The notes below the pieces were generated by a model. The model searched no databases, had not been told where the DNA came from, and saw nothing but the letters and a program-made list of their open reading frames with translations. Positions 34,326 to 39,942 of a DNA stretch of 64,000 bases are shown here, in pieces. Both the position numbers and the translations under genes were made by a program. Each line of letters begins with the position of its first letter. The stretch's first letter is position 1. The DNA is from an uncultured Acidobacteriota bacterium (GTDB lineage: Bacteria > Acidobacteriota > Polarisedimenticolia > J045), in NCBI GenBank assembly GCA_963800865.1, contig CAWDCL010000004.1:1935339-1999338 (forward strand), in the 5' to 3' direction.

Positions 34326-35224
34326 CACCGGCTCCGGTCGACGGCCGCGCGCACGAGGGCGAGCAGCGGATCCGCCGCTGGACCGAGCGACGCCAGCCCG
34401 GCGAGGGCTTCGTCCCGCAGCGTGGCCGCGCGCTGCAGCGCGGCGTCGAGCCCGACCAGCGCCGGCCAGGTCGCCTTGCCCTGCGCGAGGTCCTTGCCCG
34501 CGGTCTTGCCGAGCTGCGCGGTGGACGCCGTCAGGTCGAGGATGTCGTCCTGGATCTGAAACGCCTCGCCGACCAGCGCTCCGCTCGCGACGAGCCGCGC
34601 GCGCAGTGATTCCGGGGCTGCGGCCGCGAGCGCGCCGAGCTCGAAGCAGGCGACCAGCAGCGCACCGGTCTTCATCCGATCGATCCGGGCGACGGCGTGC
34701 GCGTCGGCCGGCCGCCCGGCGGCGGCGAGGTCGAGCGCCTGGCCACCGGCCATCCCGGCCGGCCCGGCCGCGACCGCGAGCGCCACGACCTGCGCCGCGA
34801 TCGTCGCTCCCGGGACCGGACCGCGGGCGAGCACCTCGAACGCCCGGGTCTGCAGCGCGTCGCCGGCGAGGATCGCCATCGCTTCGCCGTAGACCTTGTG
34901 GGTCGTGGGGCGTCCGCGGCGCAGGTCGTCGTCGTCCATCGCCGGCAGGTCGTCGTGCGCGAGGCTGTAGGAGTGGATCATCTCGATCGCCACGGCCGCC
35001 GGCAGCGCCGTCTCGACCGCCCCGCCGCAGGCGCGGCAGGTGGCGAGCGTCAGCAGCGGGCGCAGCCGCTTCCCCCCGCCGAGGAGCGCGTAGCGCATCG
35101 CTTCGAGCAGTTCCGCGGCCGCACCCGCGAGTTCCTCCGGCGCGGCCAGGGCCTCCTCGAGCCCGCGCTCGACCTGCGCGCGCCAGGCGGCGAGCGTGTC
35201 GGTGTCGGGCCGGGCGGCACTCAC
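34325..35224 (-). CDS. ispA: Farnesyl/geranylgeranyl diphosphate synthase
   Basis: [43 protein letters not shown]. Confidence 0.95.
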
Positions 35225-35493
35225 GGCGATTCCGGGGGCGGTTCGAACGGCACGGCGACGGCCTCGCCCGTCGCGCTTCGAACGAGCGCCTCGACCTTCA
35301 GCTCCGCGGCCTGCAGCTGCGCCTCGAGCGCGCGCGCCAGCGTCACTCCCTCCTCGAACAGCGCCAGGCTCTCTTCCAGCGGCAGCTCGCCCTGTTCCAT
35401 CGCGCCGACGATCGCCTCGAGCCGTGCGAGGGAGCGTTCGAACCCCTTGTCGTCGCCGGCGGGCGGAGCCGCCGGCCCGGTCCTGTCGACCAT
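35221..35493 (-). CDS. xseB: Exodeoxyribonuclease VII small subunit
   Basis: [26 protein letters not shown]; strong AGGAGG SD. Confidence 0.93.
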
Positions 35494-35536
35494 GCCTCCT
35501 CCTCGCTTTCCCGGCCCCGGTCTGCCTCGGCCGGGG

Positions 35537-36946
35537 TCATTCATCCGCGCCGCCCGCCGCCGGCTCGCCGAGCGGACCGTCCACCGTTGCGGCGAATGCT
35601 CCCCGGGCCAGCCGCACGGCGACCCGCTCCCCGGGCGCGAGCGATGTCGCGTCGCGCACTACTGCCGCGGGCTGGCCGGACCGCGTGACGAGCGCGAAGC
35701 CGCGGGCCAGCACCGCCAGTGGCGACAGCGCGTCGAGCTGCGCCGCCAGCGCGCCGCACCGGCTGCGGCAGGCTGCGAGCCGCCGCCCCGCTGCGCCGCC
35801 CAGGGCGGCGCGGGCGACGGCGAGGCGGTGGCGCCGCGCCGCGAGCCGTGCGCGTTGCCCCTCGGGAGCCAGGCGCGCGGCGAGCGCGCCCAGCGCGCGG
35901 CGGCGGCGCTCGAGCACGGCCCGCTGCGCCAGTTCGAGGCGGTGTTCGAGATCGGCGGCGTGCGCCGCGAGCCGGCTCAGCGCCAACGGGACGGCCCCCA
36001 GGGCGCGGGCGCCGGCGAGCGGCGCGAGGCGGGCGCGGGCGCGGTCGATCCGGCGGCGCGCGGCCCGGGCCAGGCGCGACGCCCCGGAGGCGACGCGGGC
36101 CGCCAGCTCGACCTCGGCGCGCACCACGACCTCGGCCGCGGCCGAAGGGGTCGGAGCGCGCAGGTCGGCGGCGAAGTCGGCCAGCGTGGTGTCGATCTCG
36201 TGCCCGACGCCGGTCACTACCGGCGTGCGGCAGGCGACGATCGCGCGCACCACGCGCTCGTCGTCGAAGGCCGCCAGGTCCTCGCGCGCTCCGCCGCCGC
36301 GCACGACCAGCAGCAGGTCGAGGCCGCACGCGTCGGCCGCGGCGAGCGCGGCGGCGATCTCCTCGGGAGCCTTCGCCCCCTGCACGGTCGCCGGCACGAC
36401 CAGCACCTGCAGGCCCGAGACGCGGCGCGCCAGGACGCGCAGCACGTCGCGCAGCGCCGCGCCGTCGGCCGAGGTCACGACCCCGATCCGGCGGGCCAGC
36501 GCGGGCAGCGCCTGCTTCCGCCCGGCGTCGAACAGCCCCTCCGCGGCGAGCCGGGCCTTGAGCTGCTCGAAGGCCAGCGCGGCCGAGCCGGCCCCGACCG
36601 GCTCGAGCGCCGAGACCGCCAGCTGGAACCGGCCCTGGACCGCGTAGACCGAGGGGAGCGCGAGCGCGAGCACCTCGAGGCCGTCCCCGGGGGCGAAGCG
36701 GACGCGCAGGTTCTCGCGCCGGAACATCGCGCAGGAGATCGAGGCCCGCCCGTCGGTCAGCGAGAAGTACCAGTGCCCGGAGCCGTGGGCGACGAAGCGC
36801 ACGATCTCGCCCAGGACCCAGACCGGGCCGATTCCCTCGCGGAGCTGCGCGTCGGCCAGCTCGTTCAGCTGGGTGACGGTGAGCGGCGCGAGGCGCGAGC
36901 CGGGCAGGGGATCGTCACCGTCCGGCGAGTGCGCGCCGGGAAGCAT
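35537..36946 (-). CDS. xseA: Exodeoxyribonuclease VII large subunit
   Basis: [42 protein letters not shown]. Confidence 0.96.
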
Positions 36947-37734
36947 CAGGCGCCCCCGGCCCCGCGCGCGATCCGGCGCACCGCCGTCGCGCGGCCGCTC
37001 CCCTCGTCGATCTCGAACAGCGCGCCACGCAGGCCGGGCTCGGCGTCCGAGGGGTCGGCGTGGCCCGGCCGGCTGGTCAGGAAGCGGCGCAGGGCGGCGT
37101 CGCGCTGCATCCCGATCACGCCGCCGTACGGGCCGGTCATGCCGAGGTCGGTGATGAACCCGGTCCCTCCGGGAAGAACCCGGGCATCGGCGGTCTGGAC
37201 GTGGGTGTGGGTCCCGAACACCCCGGCGACGCGGCCGTCGAGGTAGGCGGCGAGCGCCAGCTTCTCCGACGACGCCTCGGCGTGGAAGTCGACGACGATC
37301 GCGTCGGCCCGGCCGGAGAGCTGTTCGAGGACGCGGTCCGCGGCGCGGAACGGATCGTCGACCGGCGGCATGAAGACGCGCCCCTGCAGGTTGACGACCG
37401 CGATCCGCAGGCCGGCCAGCGAAGGCGCGACGAGGAAGCCGCGGCCGGGGCAGGGCTCGGGGTAGTTGAACGGCCGCAGCAGGCGCGGCTCGCGCTCGAG
37501 CAGCTGGTCGTGCCCCTTCTGGGCCCAGACGTGGTTGCCGGAGGTCAGGCAGTCGGCGCCCGCCTCGAGCATCGCGCGCGCGCCGGCCGCGTCCACGCCG
37601 CGGCCGCCCTTGATGTTCTCGACGTTGATCACGACGAACGCCGCGTCGTGTTCCTCGCGCAGCCGCGGCAGCCACTGCGCCACCGCGCGCCGCCCGGTCT
37701 CCCCGAAGACATCCCCGATCGCGAGCAGGTTCAT
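36946..37734 (-). CDS. ymdB: YmdB-like (TIGR00282) metallophosphoesterase
   Basis: [40 protein letters not shown]; follows rny. Confidence 0.95.
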
Positions 37735-37752: not shown

Positions 37753-39315
37753 TCAGACCGCGTAGCTGACGGCGCGGGTCTCGCGGATCACGACGACACG
37801 GATCTGGCCGGGGTAGTCGACGGTCTTCTCGATCTCGAGGGCGAGGTTACGGGCCATGAGCAGCGCCTGCTCGTCGGTCGTCGCCTCGGCCCGCACGTGG
37901 ACCCGCAGCTCGCGGCCGGCGCGGACCGCGGTGGCGCGCTCGATCCCCTCGTGCGCGAGGGCCATCCGCTCGACCTCCTCCAGCCGGTCCATGTGGCGCT
38001 GCAGGTTGTCGTTCCGTGCGCCGGGTCGCGAGACGACGATCCGCCGGGCAGTGGCCAGCACGACCCCTTCCGGCGTACGTGGCGCATCGTTGGGCTGCGC
38101 CAGCAGGCGGATCGGGTGGGTCACCGCGGGCTGCTCGCCGAAGCGGGTCGCGAGGTCGGCGCTGGCGATCGCCGGGTGCTGCAGGAGCGGCACCTTGTCG
38201 GCGCGGGCGACGTCGTGGAGCAGGCCCGCGCGCCGCAGCGCGTCGCCGGACAGGCGCAGCTCGTCCCCCAGCTCGCCCGCGATCAGGGCCACCTCGCGCG
38301 CGCGCTGGAGCAGGCTCTGCCCGTGGTCGGTCACGAACGACAGCCGGCCGAGCAGGAGGACGAGGCGCTCGTGAAGGCCGGTCATCCCCAGTTCGAAGAT
38401 CACCGCCTCGCCCCGCTCGCGCGCCTCCTCGTCGGCCTCCGAGCGCGACTTCTCGACGACCTCCTCGATCCGTGCCGGGTGGATCCGGCCGTCCTCGACC
38501 AGCTTCTGCAGCGAGCGCGCGGCGATCGTGCGCCGCAGCGGGTCCCACGAGGAGAGCAGGATCGCGTGGGGCGTGTCGTCGACCAGGAAATCGACCCCGG
38601 TGGTGTGTTCGAGCGCGCGGATGTTGCGTCCCTCGCGCCCGATCACGCGTCCCTTCATCTCGTCGCTCGGCAGCTCGACGAGGGAGATCGTCCCCTCGAC
38701 GGTGACCGCCCCGCGGACCGACGCCATCGCGCGCAGCACCAGCTCGCGCGCGCGCTCGTCCGCGGCAAGGCGGGCGCTCTCCTCGGAGCGGGCGACATGG
38801 CGAGCGACCTCGCCCGTGAGCTCCCGCTCGAGGGTGGCGATCAGGCGCTCCCTGGCCTCGTCGGCGGAGAGCCCGGCCACTTCCTCGAGCCGGCTACGGA
38901 TCTGGTCCTCGCTGCCGGCGATCCGCGCCTCCCGCTCGTCGAGCCGCGTCGAGCGGGCGTCGAGGGCGCCGGCGCGCTCGGCCATCTCCTCGGCCTTCGC
39001 GTCGAGCGTCGCGCCGCGCTCCTCCAGCTTGTGACGGCGGTCGGCCAGCTCGGCGGACCGGCGCGTGACCTCCTCGTCCTTGCGGGTGGCCTCGGCCTCG
39101 CGTTGGGCGATCCGCTCGCGGAGCCGTCGCTCCTCGTCGACCACCCGCCGGCGGACCTGTTCCTCCACCCGGCGCTCGAGTTCGAGCTCGAGCTGGGTGA
39201 GCCGCTCGATCTGCTGCGAGAGCTGGCGCGAGCGCCGCGCGGCCAGGATCGCCAGCACGGCGACGGCGACCACGAGGGCCGCGTCGAGGATGCCAAGCCA
39301 GAGCAACGGGTTCAT
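37753..39315 (-). CDS. rny: Ribonuclease Y homolog with a degenerate HD domain
   Basis: N-terminal TM, long coiled coil, KH motif LPSDEMKGRVIGREGRNIR, DGRIHPARIEE, RAGLLHD, C-terminal YPGQIRVVVIRETRA. Confidence 0.93.
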   Translation of the reverse strand: MNPLLWLGILDAALVVAVAVLAILAARRSRQLSQQIERLTQLELELERRVEEQVRRRVVDEERRLRERIAQREAEATRKDEEVTRRSAELADRRHKLEERGATLDAKAEEMAERAGALDARSTRLDEREARIAGSEDQIRSRLEEVAGLSADEARERLIATLERELTGEVARHVARSEESARLAADERARELVLRAMASVRGAVTVEGTISLVELPSDEMKGRVIGREGRNIRALEHTTGVDFLVDDTPHAILLSSWDPLRRTIAARSLQKLVEDGRIHPARIEEVVEKSRSEADEEARERGEAVIFELGMTGLHERLVLLLGRLSFVTDHGQSLLQRAREVALIAGELGDELRLSGDALRRAGLLHDVARADKVPLLQHPAIASADLATRFGEQPAVTHPIRLLAQPNDAPRTPEGVVLATARRIVVSRPGARNDNLQRHMDRLEEVERMALAHEGIERATAVRAGRELRVHVRAEATTDEQALLMARNLALEIEKTVDYPGQIRVVVIRETRAVSYAV

Positions 39316-39340
39316 GCGGTCCGCCGGTCGATCGATCGAG

Positions 39341-39546
39341 GTGACCGGCAGATCGGGACGGTGGGCGGATGCGGGATTGATGCCTGGAGGACCAGGTGGG
39401 TGCCCTCCCGCGGGCTTAGGCTTCCTTCGAACGCGGCGCGCAAGGCGCCGAGAAGGCCTGCACACCCTCCGCGGAGTCCGGGCTCCCGAGGTGGTGCTGT
39501 TGGCTCAAGCGCGATCCGCCGGCACGCAATCCTGACCTGCCGGACC
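39341..39546 (-). ncRNA. ssrS: 6S RNA
   Basis: Lies between zapA and rny (canonical). Terminal stem ccggcaggtcagga/tcccgatctgccgg; 6S-like motifs cttgagccaac...gggagc...ggaagccta...gggcacccacctgg; has its own promoter. Ends approximate. Confidence 0.85.
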
Positions 39547-39600: not shown

Positions 39601-39942
39601 TCAGCCGCGCGGTTCGTCGACCGGTTCGATCGCGGCGGCGAGCTGCAGCAGGCTCTCCTCGAGCCGCCGCGCGCGCTGCCCGACCGCCCGGGCGCGGGTC
39701 AGCCAGGCCTCGCGCCGCTCCTCGTGTTCCGACGCGAGGTTGAGCGCGGCGAGCACCGCGACCTTGAAGTCGTCGCGCAGCCCCGACGCGCCCGCCACCT
39801 CGGCCAGCGCGTCGTCGACGCGGGCGGCCAGGGCGCGCAGCAGCGCCGGGTCCTCGCCGCGGAGCCGGTAGAGCCGGCCGGCGAGTTCGACCTCGACCAC
39901 CTGCGCCGCCGGCCGTGCGGGCGGAATTCCGTTCTCCGGCAT
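39601..39942 (-). CDS. zapA: Cell division protein ZapA
   Basis: VEVELAGRLYRL, LAARVD, VAVLAALNLA; GGAGG SD and TATAAT upstream; synteny with 6S/rny. Confidence 0.9.
   Translation of the reverse strand: MPENGIPPARPAAQVVEVELAGRLYRLRGEDPALLRALAARVDDALAEVAGASGLRDDFKVAVLAALNLASEHEERREAWLTRARAVGQRARRLEESLLQLAAAIEPVDEPRG

Follow-up and report, generated by a model that had tools for sequence, protein, structure and literature searches.

An RNase Y-like gene beside 6S RNA

We analyzed a 64,000-nucleotide stretch of DNA (the window) from an uncultured Acidobacteriota bacterium (contig CAWDCL010000004.1 of assembly GCA_963800865.1). On its reverse strand lies a gene whose product (P0001) resembles ribonuclease Y (RNase Y; Rny or YmdA, TIGR03319, as in Bacillus subtilis) but differs from it in the metal site of the HD domain. 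We call this gene rny-A, or A, and we use B for the intact rny gene elsewhere in the same genome. In many bacteria, RNase Y is the chief endonuclease that initiates RNA decay, and its choice of substrates is poorly understood. The features of the locus are listed in Table 1. An earlier description of the gene, made by a model from the DNA letters (the original prediction), had placed it in a zapA-6S-rny-ymdB context, and matches to PF05164, RF00013, and PF13277 confirm this arrangement.

Table 1. Features of the rny-A locus and location of rny-B. Positions are those of the window, except that rny-B is given in genome coordinates.
Feature	Position	Strand	Basis
rny-A, RNase Y-like protein P0001, 520 aa, dismantled HD metal site	37753..39315	-	Open frame; stop codon 37753-37755
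N-terminal hydrophobic helix, residues 3-26, presumed membrane anchor	39238..39309	-	LLWLGILDAALVVAVAVLAILAA; helical in AF2 model
RNase_Y_N coiled-coil region, residues 14-197	38725..39276	-	PF12072 50.4 bits, cut-off 32; long helices 3-146 and 151-209 in AF2 model
KH domain, ~residues 205-275	38491..38703	-	PF00013 25.6 bits (cut-off 21.5); pLDDT 86-95; Foldseek KH matches
Degenerate HD domain, ~residues 330-430	38026..38328	-	Pfam HD 23.6 bits; fold kept, pLDDT 85-96; Foldseek HD matches
R338 (first His position)	38302-38304	-	Mapping onto canonical paralog B
H367/D368 (HD dyad)	38212-38217	-	Mapping onto canonical paralog B
H380 (third His, "QHP")	38176-38178	-	Mapping onto canonical paralog B
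L405/A406 (HH pair position)	38098-38103	-	Mapping onto canonical paralog B
R424 (last Asp position)	38044-38046	-	Mapping onto canonical paralog B
C-terminal domain, residues 436-520	37756..38010	-	Within end-to-end TIGR03319 alignment; f1 mean column conservation 0.77
6S (SsrS) RNA, between zapA and rny-A	39345..39527	-	RF00013 49.6 bits at 39377-39508; RNA-library contigs
zapA	39601..39942	-	PF05164 47.1 bits
ymdB, metallophosphoesterase	36946..37734	-	PF13277 315.3 bits; start 18 nt past rny-A stop
xseA, exonuclease VII large subunit	35537..36946	-	PF02601 297.5 bits; beside A in 33/38 class loci
xseB-like small open reading frame	35221..35544	-	phmmer: product matches the corresponding site at other A-type loci and at single-copy loci
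rny-B, intact	G000:C4:1407511-1409037		TIGR03319 560.8 to 561.1 bits; same contig, ~565 kb from A

The frame of rny-A runs for 520 codons without interruption in a window with about 74% G+C. Downstream of the 6S RNA, the first possible start is an ATG at 39315, about 30 nt beyond the 3' end of that RNA. Because a longer open reading frame, from a GTG at 39465, overlaps the 6S RNA gene, the ATG is the likely start.

Outside the active site, A is built like RNase Y. It has the same length and the same order of domains (transmembrane anchor, coiled coil, KH, HD, and C-terminal domain) and is about 40-45% identical to the canonical RNase Y of other phyla. TIGR03319 matches A from end to end (residues 13-519 to model positions 7-513) with 447 bits (446.6 in the genome search), which is 7 bits below the curated cut-off of 454.35, so the model does not assign A to the Ribonuclease Y equivalog. 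The original prediction had suggested this alignment as a check. Pfam recognizes RNase_Y_N (50.4 bits), KH_1 (25.6 bits), and part of HD, the last of these marginally (23.6 bits against a cut-off of 22). Both N-terminal features of RNase Y, the hydrophobic helix and the RNase_Y_N coiled coil, are present, as judged from the sequence, from PF12072, and from the helices in an AlphaFold2 (AF2) model. By analogy with the architecture reported for B. subtilis RNase Y (PMC3997798), residues 3-26 are presumed to be the transmembrane anchor. The GxxG loop of the KH domain is intact (G226-R-E-G229), and both glycines, G226 and G229, are invariant across 73 aligned sequences. The AF2 model, which was made from a 73-sequence alignment (A1), has a mean predicted local distance difference test score (pLDDT) of 83.9 and a predicted template modeling score of 0.49; the KH, linker, and HD blocks mostly lie at 85-96. 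Thus the end-to-end match, the Pfam domains, and the model bear out the claim that membrane helix, coiled coil, KH, and C-terminal domain are kept.

Four of seven metal ligands are replaced in A

The His/Asp motif of the HD domain is reported to be required for the activity of RNase Y (PMC3997798). Cleavage by the B. subtilis enzyme is described as needing Mg, for which Mn or Zn can substitute, and its metal site was deduced from the HD hydrolase 2pq7 (Morellet et al., PMC9775385).

We mapped the seven ligand positions (H..HD..H..HH..D) of A onto those of B. Three are kept and four are replaced, two of them by Arg (R338 and R424), so the domain lacks the full ligand set. The replacements and the remaining dyad lie in the motifs GQSLLQR (R338), LLHDVAR (H367 and D368), PIRLLA (L405 and A406), and TARRIVVSRPGAR (R424). 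All four motifs occur in the translation of 37753-39315 (-) just as the original prediction had read them, and its statement that the first His, the HH pair, and the final Asp are lost agrees with our mapping. The third His, H380, which went unmentioned there, is retained. In the five genomes of the window's genus, the residues at the seven positions of A are identical (5/5), which upholds the earlier argument that sequencing error is no explanation.

The genome encodes an intact paralog

A TIGR03319 search of the whole genome gave two full-length matches, A (446.6 bits) and B (560.8 bits). The product of B (P0122, 532 aa) has all seven ligand positions intact, in the motifs GQNVLEH, LLHDIGK, GTHPEIG, ESHHDD, and AAADALSGARPGARR. 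A and B are 33% identical over their full length. Other nucleases that could initiate decay are present as well: the genome has two homologs of RNase E/G (338.8 and 254.2 bits) and an RNase J-like gene, whose 329 bits fall short of the cut-off of 400. The suggestion that a paralog or RNase E/J would be available for cleavage therefore holds. We found no member of the YlbF/YmcA family (PF06133) in this genome, which is 96% complete; a PSP1/YaaT-like gene is present.

Ligands were lost stepwise across the A copies

We counted rny-like genes in two samples. The class survey comprised 41 genomes of the window's class, including the window's own and the unpublished G034. The phylum sample comprised 151 acidobacterial genomes that are at least 85% complete, including the unpublished G034, G061, and G085, and was searched at a threshold of E 1e-40. 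We use f1 for the window's family and other f-numbers for other family-level groups.

Two or more rny-like matches were found in 40 of the 41 class genomes; the exception, G032 (89% complete), has a B-type match alone. In the phylum sample, 111 of 151 genomes had an rny-like match and 40 had none. Two copies were found in 29 of the 111, namely in all 13 genomes of the class, all 11 of f32, all three of f20, one of f34, and one of f17. The other 82 have a single copy, which always scores above 600 bits. Across the class and phylum samples, we saw no genome with a degenerate copy alone; G043, where the last Asp is missing from both copies, is borderline.

All 20 acidobacterial rny genes that occur as single copies and 42 of the 43 B copies have the complete ligand set (62 of the 63 non-A genes). 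None of the 47 A copies does; these A copies are from the class and from four other family-level groups. The original prediction had proposed to check if the substitutions are shared across the clade, and had named intact ligands in close relatives as a sign of recent decay. As these counts show, the substitutions extend across the clade, and the A copies of relatives are degenerate throughout. Since ligand loss in A spans lineages, recent decay is excluded.

The extent of the loss differs among lineages. In f20, the two A copies (L087 and L089) are changed at the last Asp alone, to Asn. The single A copies of f34 and f17 keep the HD dyad and have lost the third His, the first His of the HH pair (in f17 also the second), and the last Asp. 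The five A copies of f32 have HE or HK for HD, LH for HH, and Glu for the last Asp. Among 15 A copies from the other families of the class, the first His is kept, the Asp of the HD dyad is always lost, the HH pair retains one His or none, and the last Asp is lost in 14. Finally, all 23 A copies of f1 have Arg for the first His, Leu plus Ala or Ser for HH, and Arg for the last Asp, and these replacements are common to 23 genomes from 12 genera. The Asp of the dyad varies within f1 (Glu in 14, Ala in 4, and Asp in 5, these being the five genomes of the window's genus), as expected if a metal is no longer bound there. Overall, ligand loss across the A lineages is stepwise and graded, which is new relative to the original prediction.

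We also searched a representative library of 1.84 billion proteins with P0001 and obtained 1327 matches at E 1e-30 or below. Among the best 150 of the 1327, taken as representatives of 50% clusters, the ligand set is complete in 107, altered at one position in 16, and altered at two or more in 25, and the other 2 are fragments; this ranking favors kin of the degenerate query, so these numbers illustrate the diversity of the degenerate group and not its share of the family. The named members that we retrieved among the degenerate representatives are acidobacterial only. A genome scan with a strongly degenerate representative (P0339) returned only canonical rny genes from many phyla, at up to 44% identity, and is uninformative about degenerate copies outside the Acidobacteriota.

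A occupies the ancestral rny locus

To compare neighborhoods, we used phmmer with the window's ZapA, YmdB, XseA, XseB, and PheS as queries. At least one of zapA, ymdB, or xseA/B is nearby at all 38 A loci of the class (YmdB at 33, ZapA at 33, and XseA at 33, with the misses mostly on truncated contigs), at all nine A loci of other lineages, and at 18 of 20 single-copy canonical rny loci, and at none of the 43 B loci. We also tested some loci for 6S RNA: it lies between zapA and rny at 5 of 8 single-copy loci and at 5 of 11 A loci, and the only B locus in the test has none. Because the arrangement is common to A and to single-copy active rny loci and never occurs at B, zapA-6S-rny-ymdB-xseAB is the ancestral acidobacterial arrangement, and the active site was lost from the copy that remained in it. 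By position, then, the degenerate copy A is the ortholog of the ancestral rny and of the single-copy acidobacterial RNase Y, a point that goes beyond the original prediction.

In two sister genomes of f1, G006 (locus L021) and G005 (L023), the A locus has no ymdB, and xseA comes straight after rny-A.

Phylogeny and selection

We inferred a tree from 90 rows with IQ-TREE (quick mode, LG+G4) and measured branch support with the approximate likelihood-ratio test (SH-aLRT). A nests within the single-copy acidobacterial rny genes (SH-aLRT 90), and the A copies of the class and of f32 form a clade (99). The B copies (31 rows, from all five lineages) group together in another clade (99), whose position relative to the three outgroup lineages is unsettled; in the quick tree, this clade falls outside the one that holds the acidobacterial single-copy genes and A. 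B may be an old duplicate, or it may have been acquired by horizontal transfer. The stem that leads to the A copies of f1 has a length of 0.84, versus 0.34 for the B copies of f1, and the terminal branches are alike. Both Arg residues arise on this stem. A long stem with similar tips fits a burst of change that was followed by renewed constraint.

The original prediction had also proposed that A is kept under selection. We computed the ratio of nonsynonymous to synonymous substitution rates (dN/dS) by the Nei-Gojobori method for pairs within genera. We rely on values for each domain, as whole-gene values are partly inflated (for example 0.30 in genus g4) by the stop-to-stop frames, which extend upstream of the real start. 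The HD region has a dN/dS of 0.04-0.15 among 14 pairs of A copies and of 0.00-0.11 among 10 pairs of B copies; for the KH region of A, the values are 0.00-0.14. Selection on A is therefore well supported, even within the degenerate domain. Mean column conservation of the HD domain is also similar (0.79 in the A copies of f1 and 0.80 in B).

Furthermore, f1 has fixed new residues in and around the former metal site. R338, A370, R371, S385, L405, A406, T422, and R424 are each present in 96-100% of its A copies (R338, R424, and L405 in 100% and A406 in 96%), and A370 and R371 turn HDIGK into H-x-x-A-R. Because a drifting relic would not fix new residues, the pocket looks newly constrained.

Structure and complex prediction

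When we compared the AF2 model of A with the PDB by using Foldseek, the top matches were the beta subunit of glycyl-tRNA synthetase (GlyRS; 8ie2_F, E 5.4e-4, and 7eiv_C); other matches were PPX/GppA, 1xx7_E, and 2pq7, along with many KH domains. A sequence search of the PDB found no solved RNase Y: P0001 had no matches at E <=0.01, and P0122 matched only the KH protein 2e3u (E 0.0013).

For the pair of A and B, complex prediction gave an interface score (ipSAE) of 0.34 (0.36, 0.31, and 0.34 in separate runs), and the best control scored 0.01. The runs agree on at least 69% of contacts, and the pLDDT of the partner is at least 69. In calibration, the mark that we use for this score was reached by 116 of 157 solved complexes and by 2 of 215 mismatched pairs; passes at or below 0.60 include only 18 of the 157 solved complexes, yet both of the mismatched pairs. 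These counts hold roughly, as our own alignments were used. Overall, the score supports an A-B complex weakly.

A is probably a non-cleaving RNase Y

Taken together, these results indicate that rny-A is probably an old pseudo-RNase Y, which stayed at the ancestral locus, does not cleave RNA, and is kept by purifying selection beside an intact B. It has features that are expected of a pseudoenzyme: the ligands are lost and the fold is kept, and the gene is under purifying selection and has been retained over the long term (in 40 of 41 class genomes and in four further groups).

We propose that A lost its metal site once a second intact rny was available in the same lineage. With the first His, both residues of the HH pair, and the last Asp gone and two guanidinium groups present instead, the pocket would be unable to bind the divalent metal(s) required by RNase Y, and A would therefore not cut RNA. 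A would still sit at the membrane and bind single-stranded RNA through its KH domain, and its Arg-lined former active site might bind an RNA phosphate. A would act as a substrate-binding or regulatory subunit, and cleavage would be left to B, the two RNase E/G homologs, and the RNase J-like protein.

The likeliest form of such action is a heteromer of A and B, joined via the coiled coil and the C-terminal region, although we put this at slightly short of an even chance. B. subtilis RNase Y is reported to dimerize via its N-terminal coiled coil and probably also its C-terminal region (PMC9775385), which makes an A-B heteromer a natural hypothesis. A more specific version, which we consider unlikely, is that the R338/R424 pocket is a metal-free phosphate site that senses the 5' end or the backbone of RNA. 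A would then select and hold the substrate and B would cut it, and this membrane-bound, two-gene holoenzyme would stand in for specificity factors of the YlbF/YmcA type. If true, A and B would divide labor between protomers, comparable to the 5' sensor and active site of RNase E, which work in trans, or to the altered specificity of RNase J1/J2.

Several points weigh against our main reading of A. The window's genus retains H367, D368, and H380, and the Pfam HD model still passes marginally (23.6 versus 22), so a remodeled active site is formally possible. That R338 and R424 occupy the former metal site is suggested by the alignment, which carries no geometry. Loss of the last Asp is by itself no proof of inactivity, as 12 of the 150 family representatives differ from the full set only by Asp to Asn at that position. 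The B-like copy of G043, with Asn at the last Asp, breaks the otherwise complete ligand set of B. Unpublished genomes enter both co-occurrence tallies (G034 in the class; G034, G061, and G085 in the phylum sample). A tree in which A and B form one clade is not rejected (approximately unbiased test, p = 0.257). The near-identical contigs from RNA libraries (see below) cover the 6S RNA alone and not rny-A. Finally, a weak A-B score between paralogs that self-associate may reflect just the ancestral homodimer interface.

A could instead act independently of B, as a membrane-tethered RNA binder or scaffold that works with its operon partners (YmdB, or the zapA-6S transcripts) and forms no complex with B. 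We regard this as quite unlikely. Its appeal lies in the neighborhood: ymdB adjoins A at 33 of 38 class loci, the 3' end of the 6S RNA is only 30 nt away, and B has no conserved neighbors beyond f1 (they are shared at 14 of its 34 class loci and at none of 9 elsewhere). However, single-copy active rny genes have the same zapA-6S-rny-ymdB arrangement, so it is older than the ligand loss, and the linkage to ymdB and 6S RNA was inherited and is not specific to the dead copy. Stand-alone pseudonucleases do have a precedent in fungal Ssd1 and RNase II-like proteins, as those reports describe them (PMC8097288, PMC8934651), and the weak complex prediction also fits independent action. Nevertheless, the two f1 genomes that lost ymdB from the A locus retained A, and A and B co-occur strictly.

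It is more improbable still that A remains an endoribonuclease with a rebuilt site and that A and B are two active RNases of different specificity. The site might hold a metal on H367, D368, and H380 plus water, or it might use metal-independent His acid-base chemistry, with Arg stabilizing the transition state. In the window's genus these three ligands are indeed kept; across f1, R338 and R424 are invariant, and Arg can serve in phosphoryl transfer. The HD region is also constrained as in B. Yet the Asp of the dyad drifts within f1 (Glu, Ala, or Asp, as counted above) while the remaining pocket is fixed, which a catalytic or metal-bridging residue should not do, and H380 is missing from 2 of the 23 copies. 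Outside f1, the A copies show HE, HK, HG, or HA for the dyad, LH for the pair, and Glu, Asn, Lys, or Cys for the last Asp, so no one alternative site is conserved across A. We know of no HD-domain enzyme that functions without the H..HD..D core.

That A is a decaying gene or that its substitutions are assembly or sequencing artefacts, as a TIGR03319 score just under the cut-off and the NCBI names of clade members, which go no further than "Rnase Y domain-containing" or "DUF3552 domain-containing," might hint, is refuted by the open frames without internal stops in all 47 A copies, by dN/dS of 0.04-0.23, by the identical replacements in 23 genomes of f1 from 12 genera, and by the presence of the paralog pair across the class and beyond.

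Relation to known systems and annotation

Compared with Ribonuclease Y proper, then, A shares architecture and, with the single-copy acidobacterial enzymes, the locus; it differs in having three of seven ligands, two Arg in the site, a score below the cut-off, and a canonical rny in the same genome. For a non-cleaving A that modulates B, the closest functional analogy is RNase J1/J2 of B. subtilis, which are likewise two paralogous RNA-decay nucleases in one genome and of which J2 is a weak enzyme. The J1/J2 hetero-oligomer is reported to have a cleavage specificity unlike that of either single enzyme (PMC3997798). The fold differs (beta-CASP versus HD), and the A-B complex is predicted only weakly here.

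The beta subunit of bacterial GlyRS provides a precedent for an RNase Y-related HD domain that contacts RNA without hydrolysis. Its HD domain is described as homologous to that of RNase Y and as exapted for contact with the discriminator base of tRNA (bioRxiv 10.1101/2023.05.29.542759). This HD domain is embedded in a synthetase, whereas in A the RNase Y architecture is complete; the TM-scores that Foldseek gives for A against GlyRS beta are low (0.19) since one domain only matches. Fungal pseudonucleases of the Dis3/RNase II family such as Ssd1 are likewise described as inactive nuclease paralogs that were kept as RNA binders (PMC8097288, PMC8934651). Unlike A, Ssd1 is eukaryotic, has an unrelated fold, and lacks a membrane anchor. 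Full-text literature searches, whose coverage leaves out some subscription journals, found no description of a pseudo-paralog of RNase Y.

If judged rightly from these sequences, A is a natural and anciently conserved RNase Y that appears to be disabled and that always occurs beside an active one. It would thus be a ready-made separation-of-function variant for studying how protomers cooperate and what the scaffold (transmembrane helix, coiled coil, KH, HD, and C-terminal domain) does besides cutting. The pair is also a clear case in which the copy at the ancestral locus degenerates and the extra copy keeps the enzymatic job.

Databases handle the A copies unevenly. Members from f1 carry the database names "Rnase Y domain-containing" or "DUF3552 domain-containing." Of six A copies from outside f1 that we scanned, five pass the TIGR03319 cut-off (509.1, 524.5, 538.8, 602.9, and 665.1 bits), and the sixth, L092, scores 328.4. 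The five that pass (L037, L076, L086, L087, and L094) have lost one to four ligand residues. Also, the degenerate cluster of P0250 is deposited as "ribonuclease Y." As a result, genomes with A copies from outside f1 appear to have two active RNase Y genes.

Other observations

The 6S RNA is seen in environmental RNA libraries. Contigs from three RNA-labeled runs in three studies cover 39345-39527 (0 differences), 39346-39515 (0), and 39343-39525 (3). From this coverage, the 6S RNA is about 183 nt long, longer than the partial Rfam match, and occurs in these libraries. The three RNA-labeled runs and one run that we guessed to be RNA contained about 5% of the sampled words. For rny-A and ymdB, pieces with 90-99% likeness were present in a single run of uncertain kind, which neither shows nor excludes transcription of A.

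Between the 3' end of the 6S RNA and the start of rny-A, at 39321-39345 (-), we noticed by eye an inverted repeat with a 6-nt stem (CCGGTC...GACCGG). Judging by its letters, it could be a processing or terminator-like hairpin.

In f1, the neighbors of B are a 456-aa calcineurin-like metallophosphoesterase upstream and a SpoIIE/PP2C phosphatase downstream (loci L001 and L064). We considered these flanking genes as a clue to function and dropped them, as they are conserved only within f1 (14 of 34 B loci of the class and 0 of 9 outside it).

The two genes of the RNase E/G family and the RNase J-like gene of the window's genome lie at G000:C4:649151-649960, 1644063-1644866, and 2127155-2128786. 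Along with two RNase Y-type genes, they make an unusually full set of decay-initiating endonuclease families for one genome.

G043 (f17; 2.4 Mb in one contig; loci L091 and L092) has Asn at the last Asp in its B-like copy and His in its A-like copy. Both copies are below the TIGR03319 cut-off (417 and 328 bits), and this lineage may be without a fully canonical RNase Y.

The 12 representatives among the best 150 that have Asp to Asn at the last position as their sole change (P0289, P0301, P0302, P0330, and 8 others) match the A copies of f20. From the alignment, this form of RNase Y may be a recurrent variant that is possibly still active.

Finally, a 644-aa RNase Y homolog from a metagenome (P0041) has a tandem duplication of the segment from the HD domain to the C-terminus, with HDIGK, HH, and AADA intact in both repeats.

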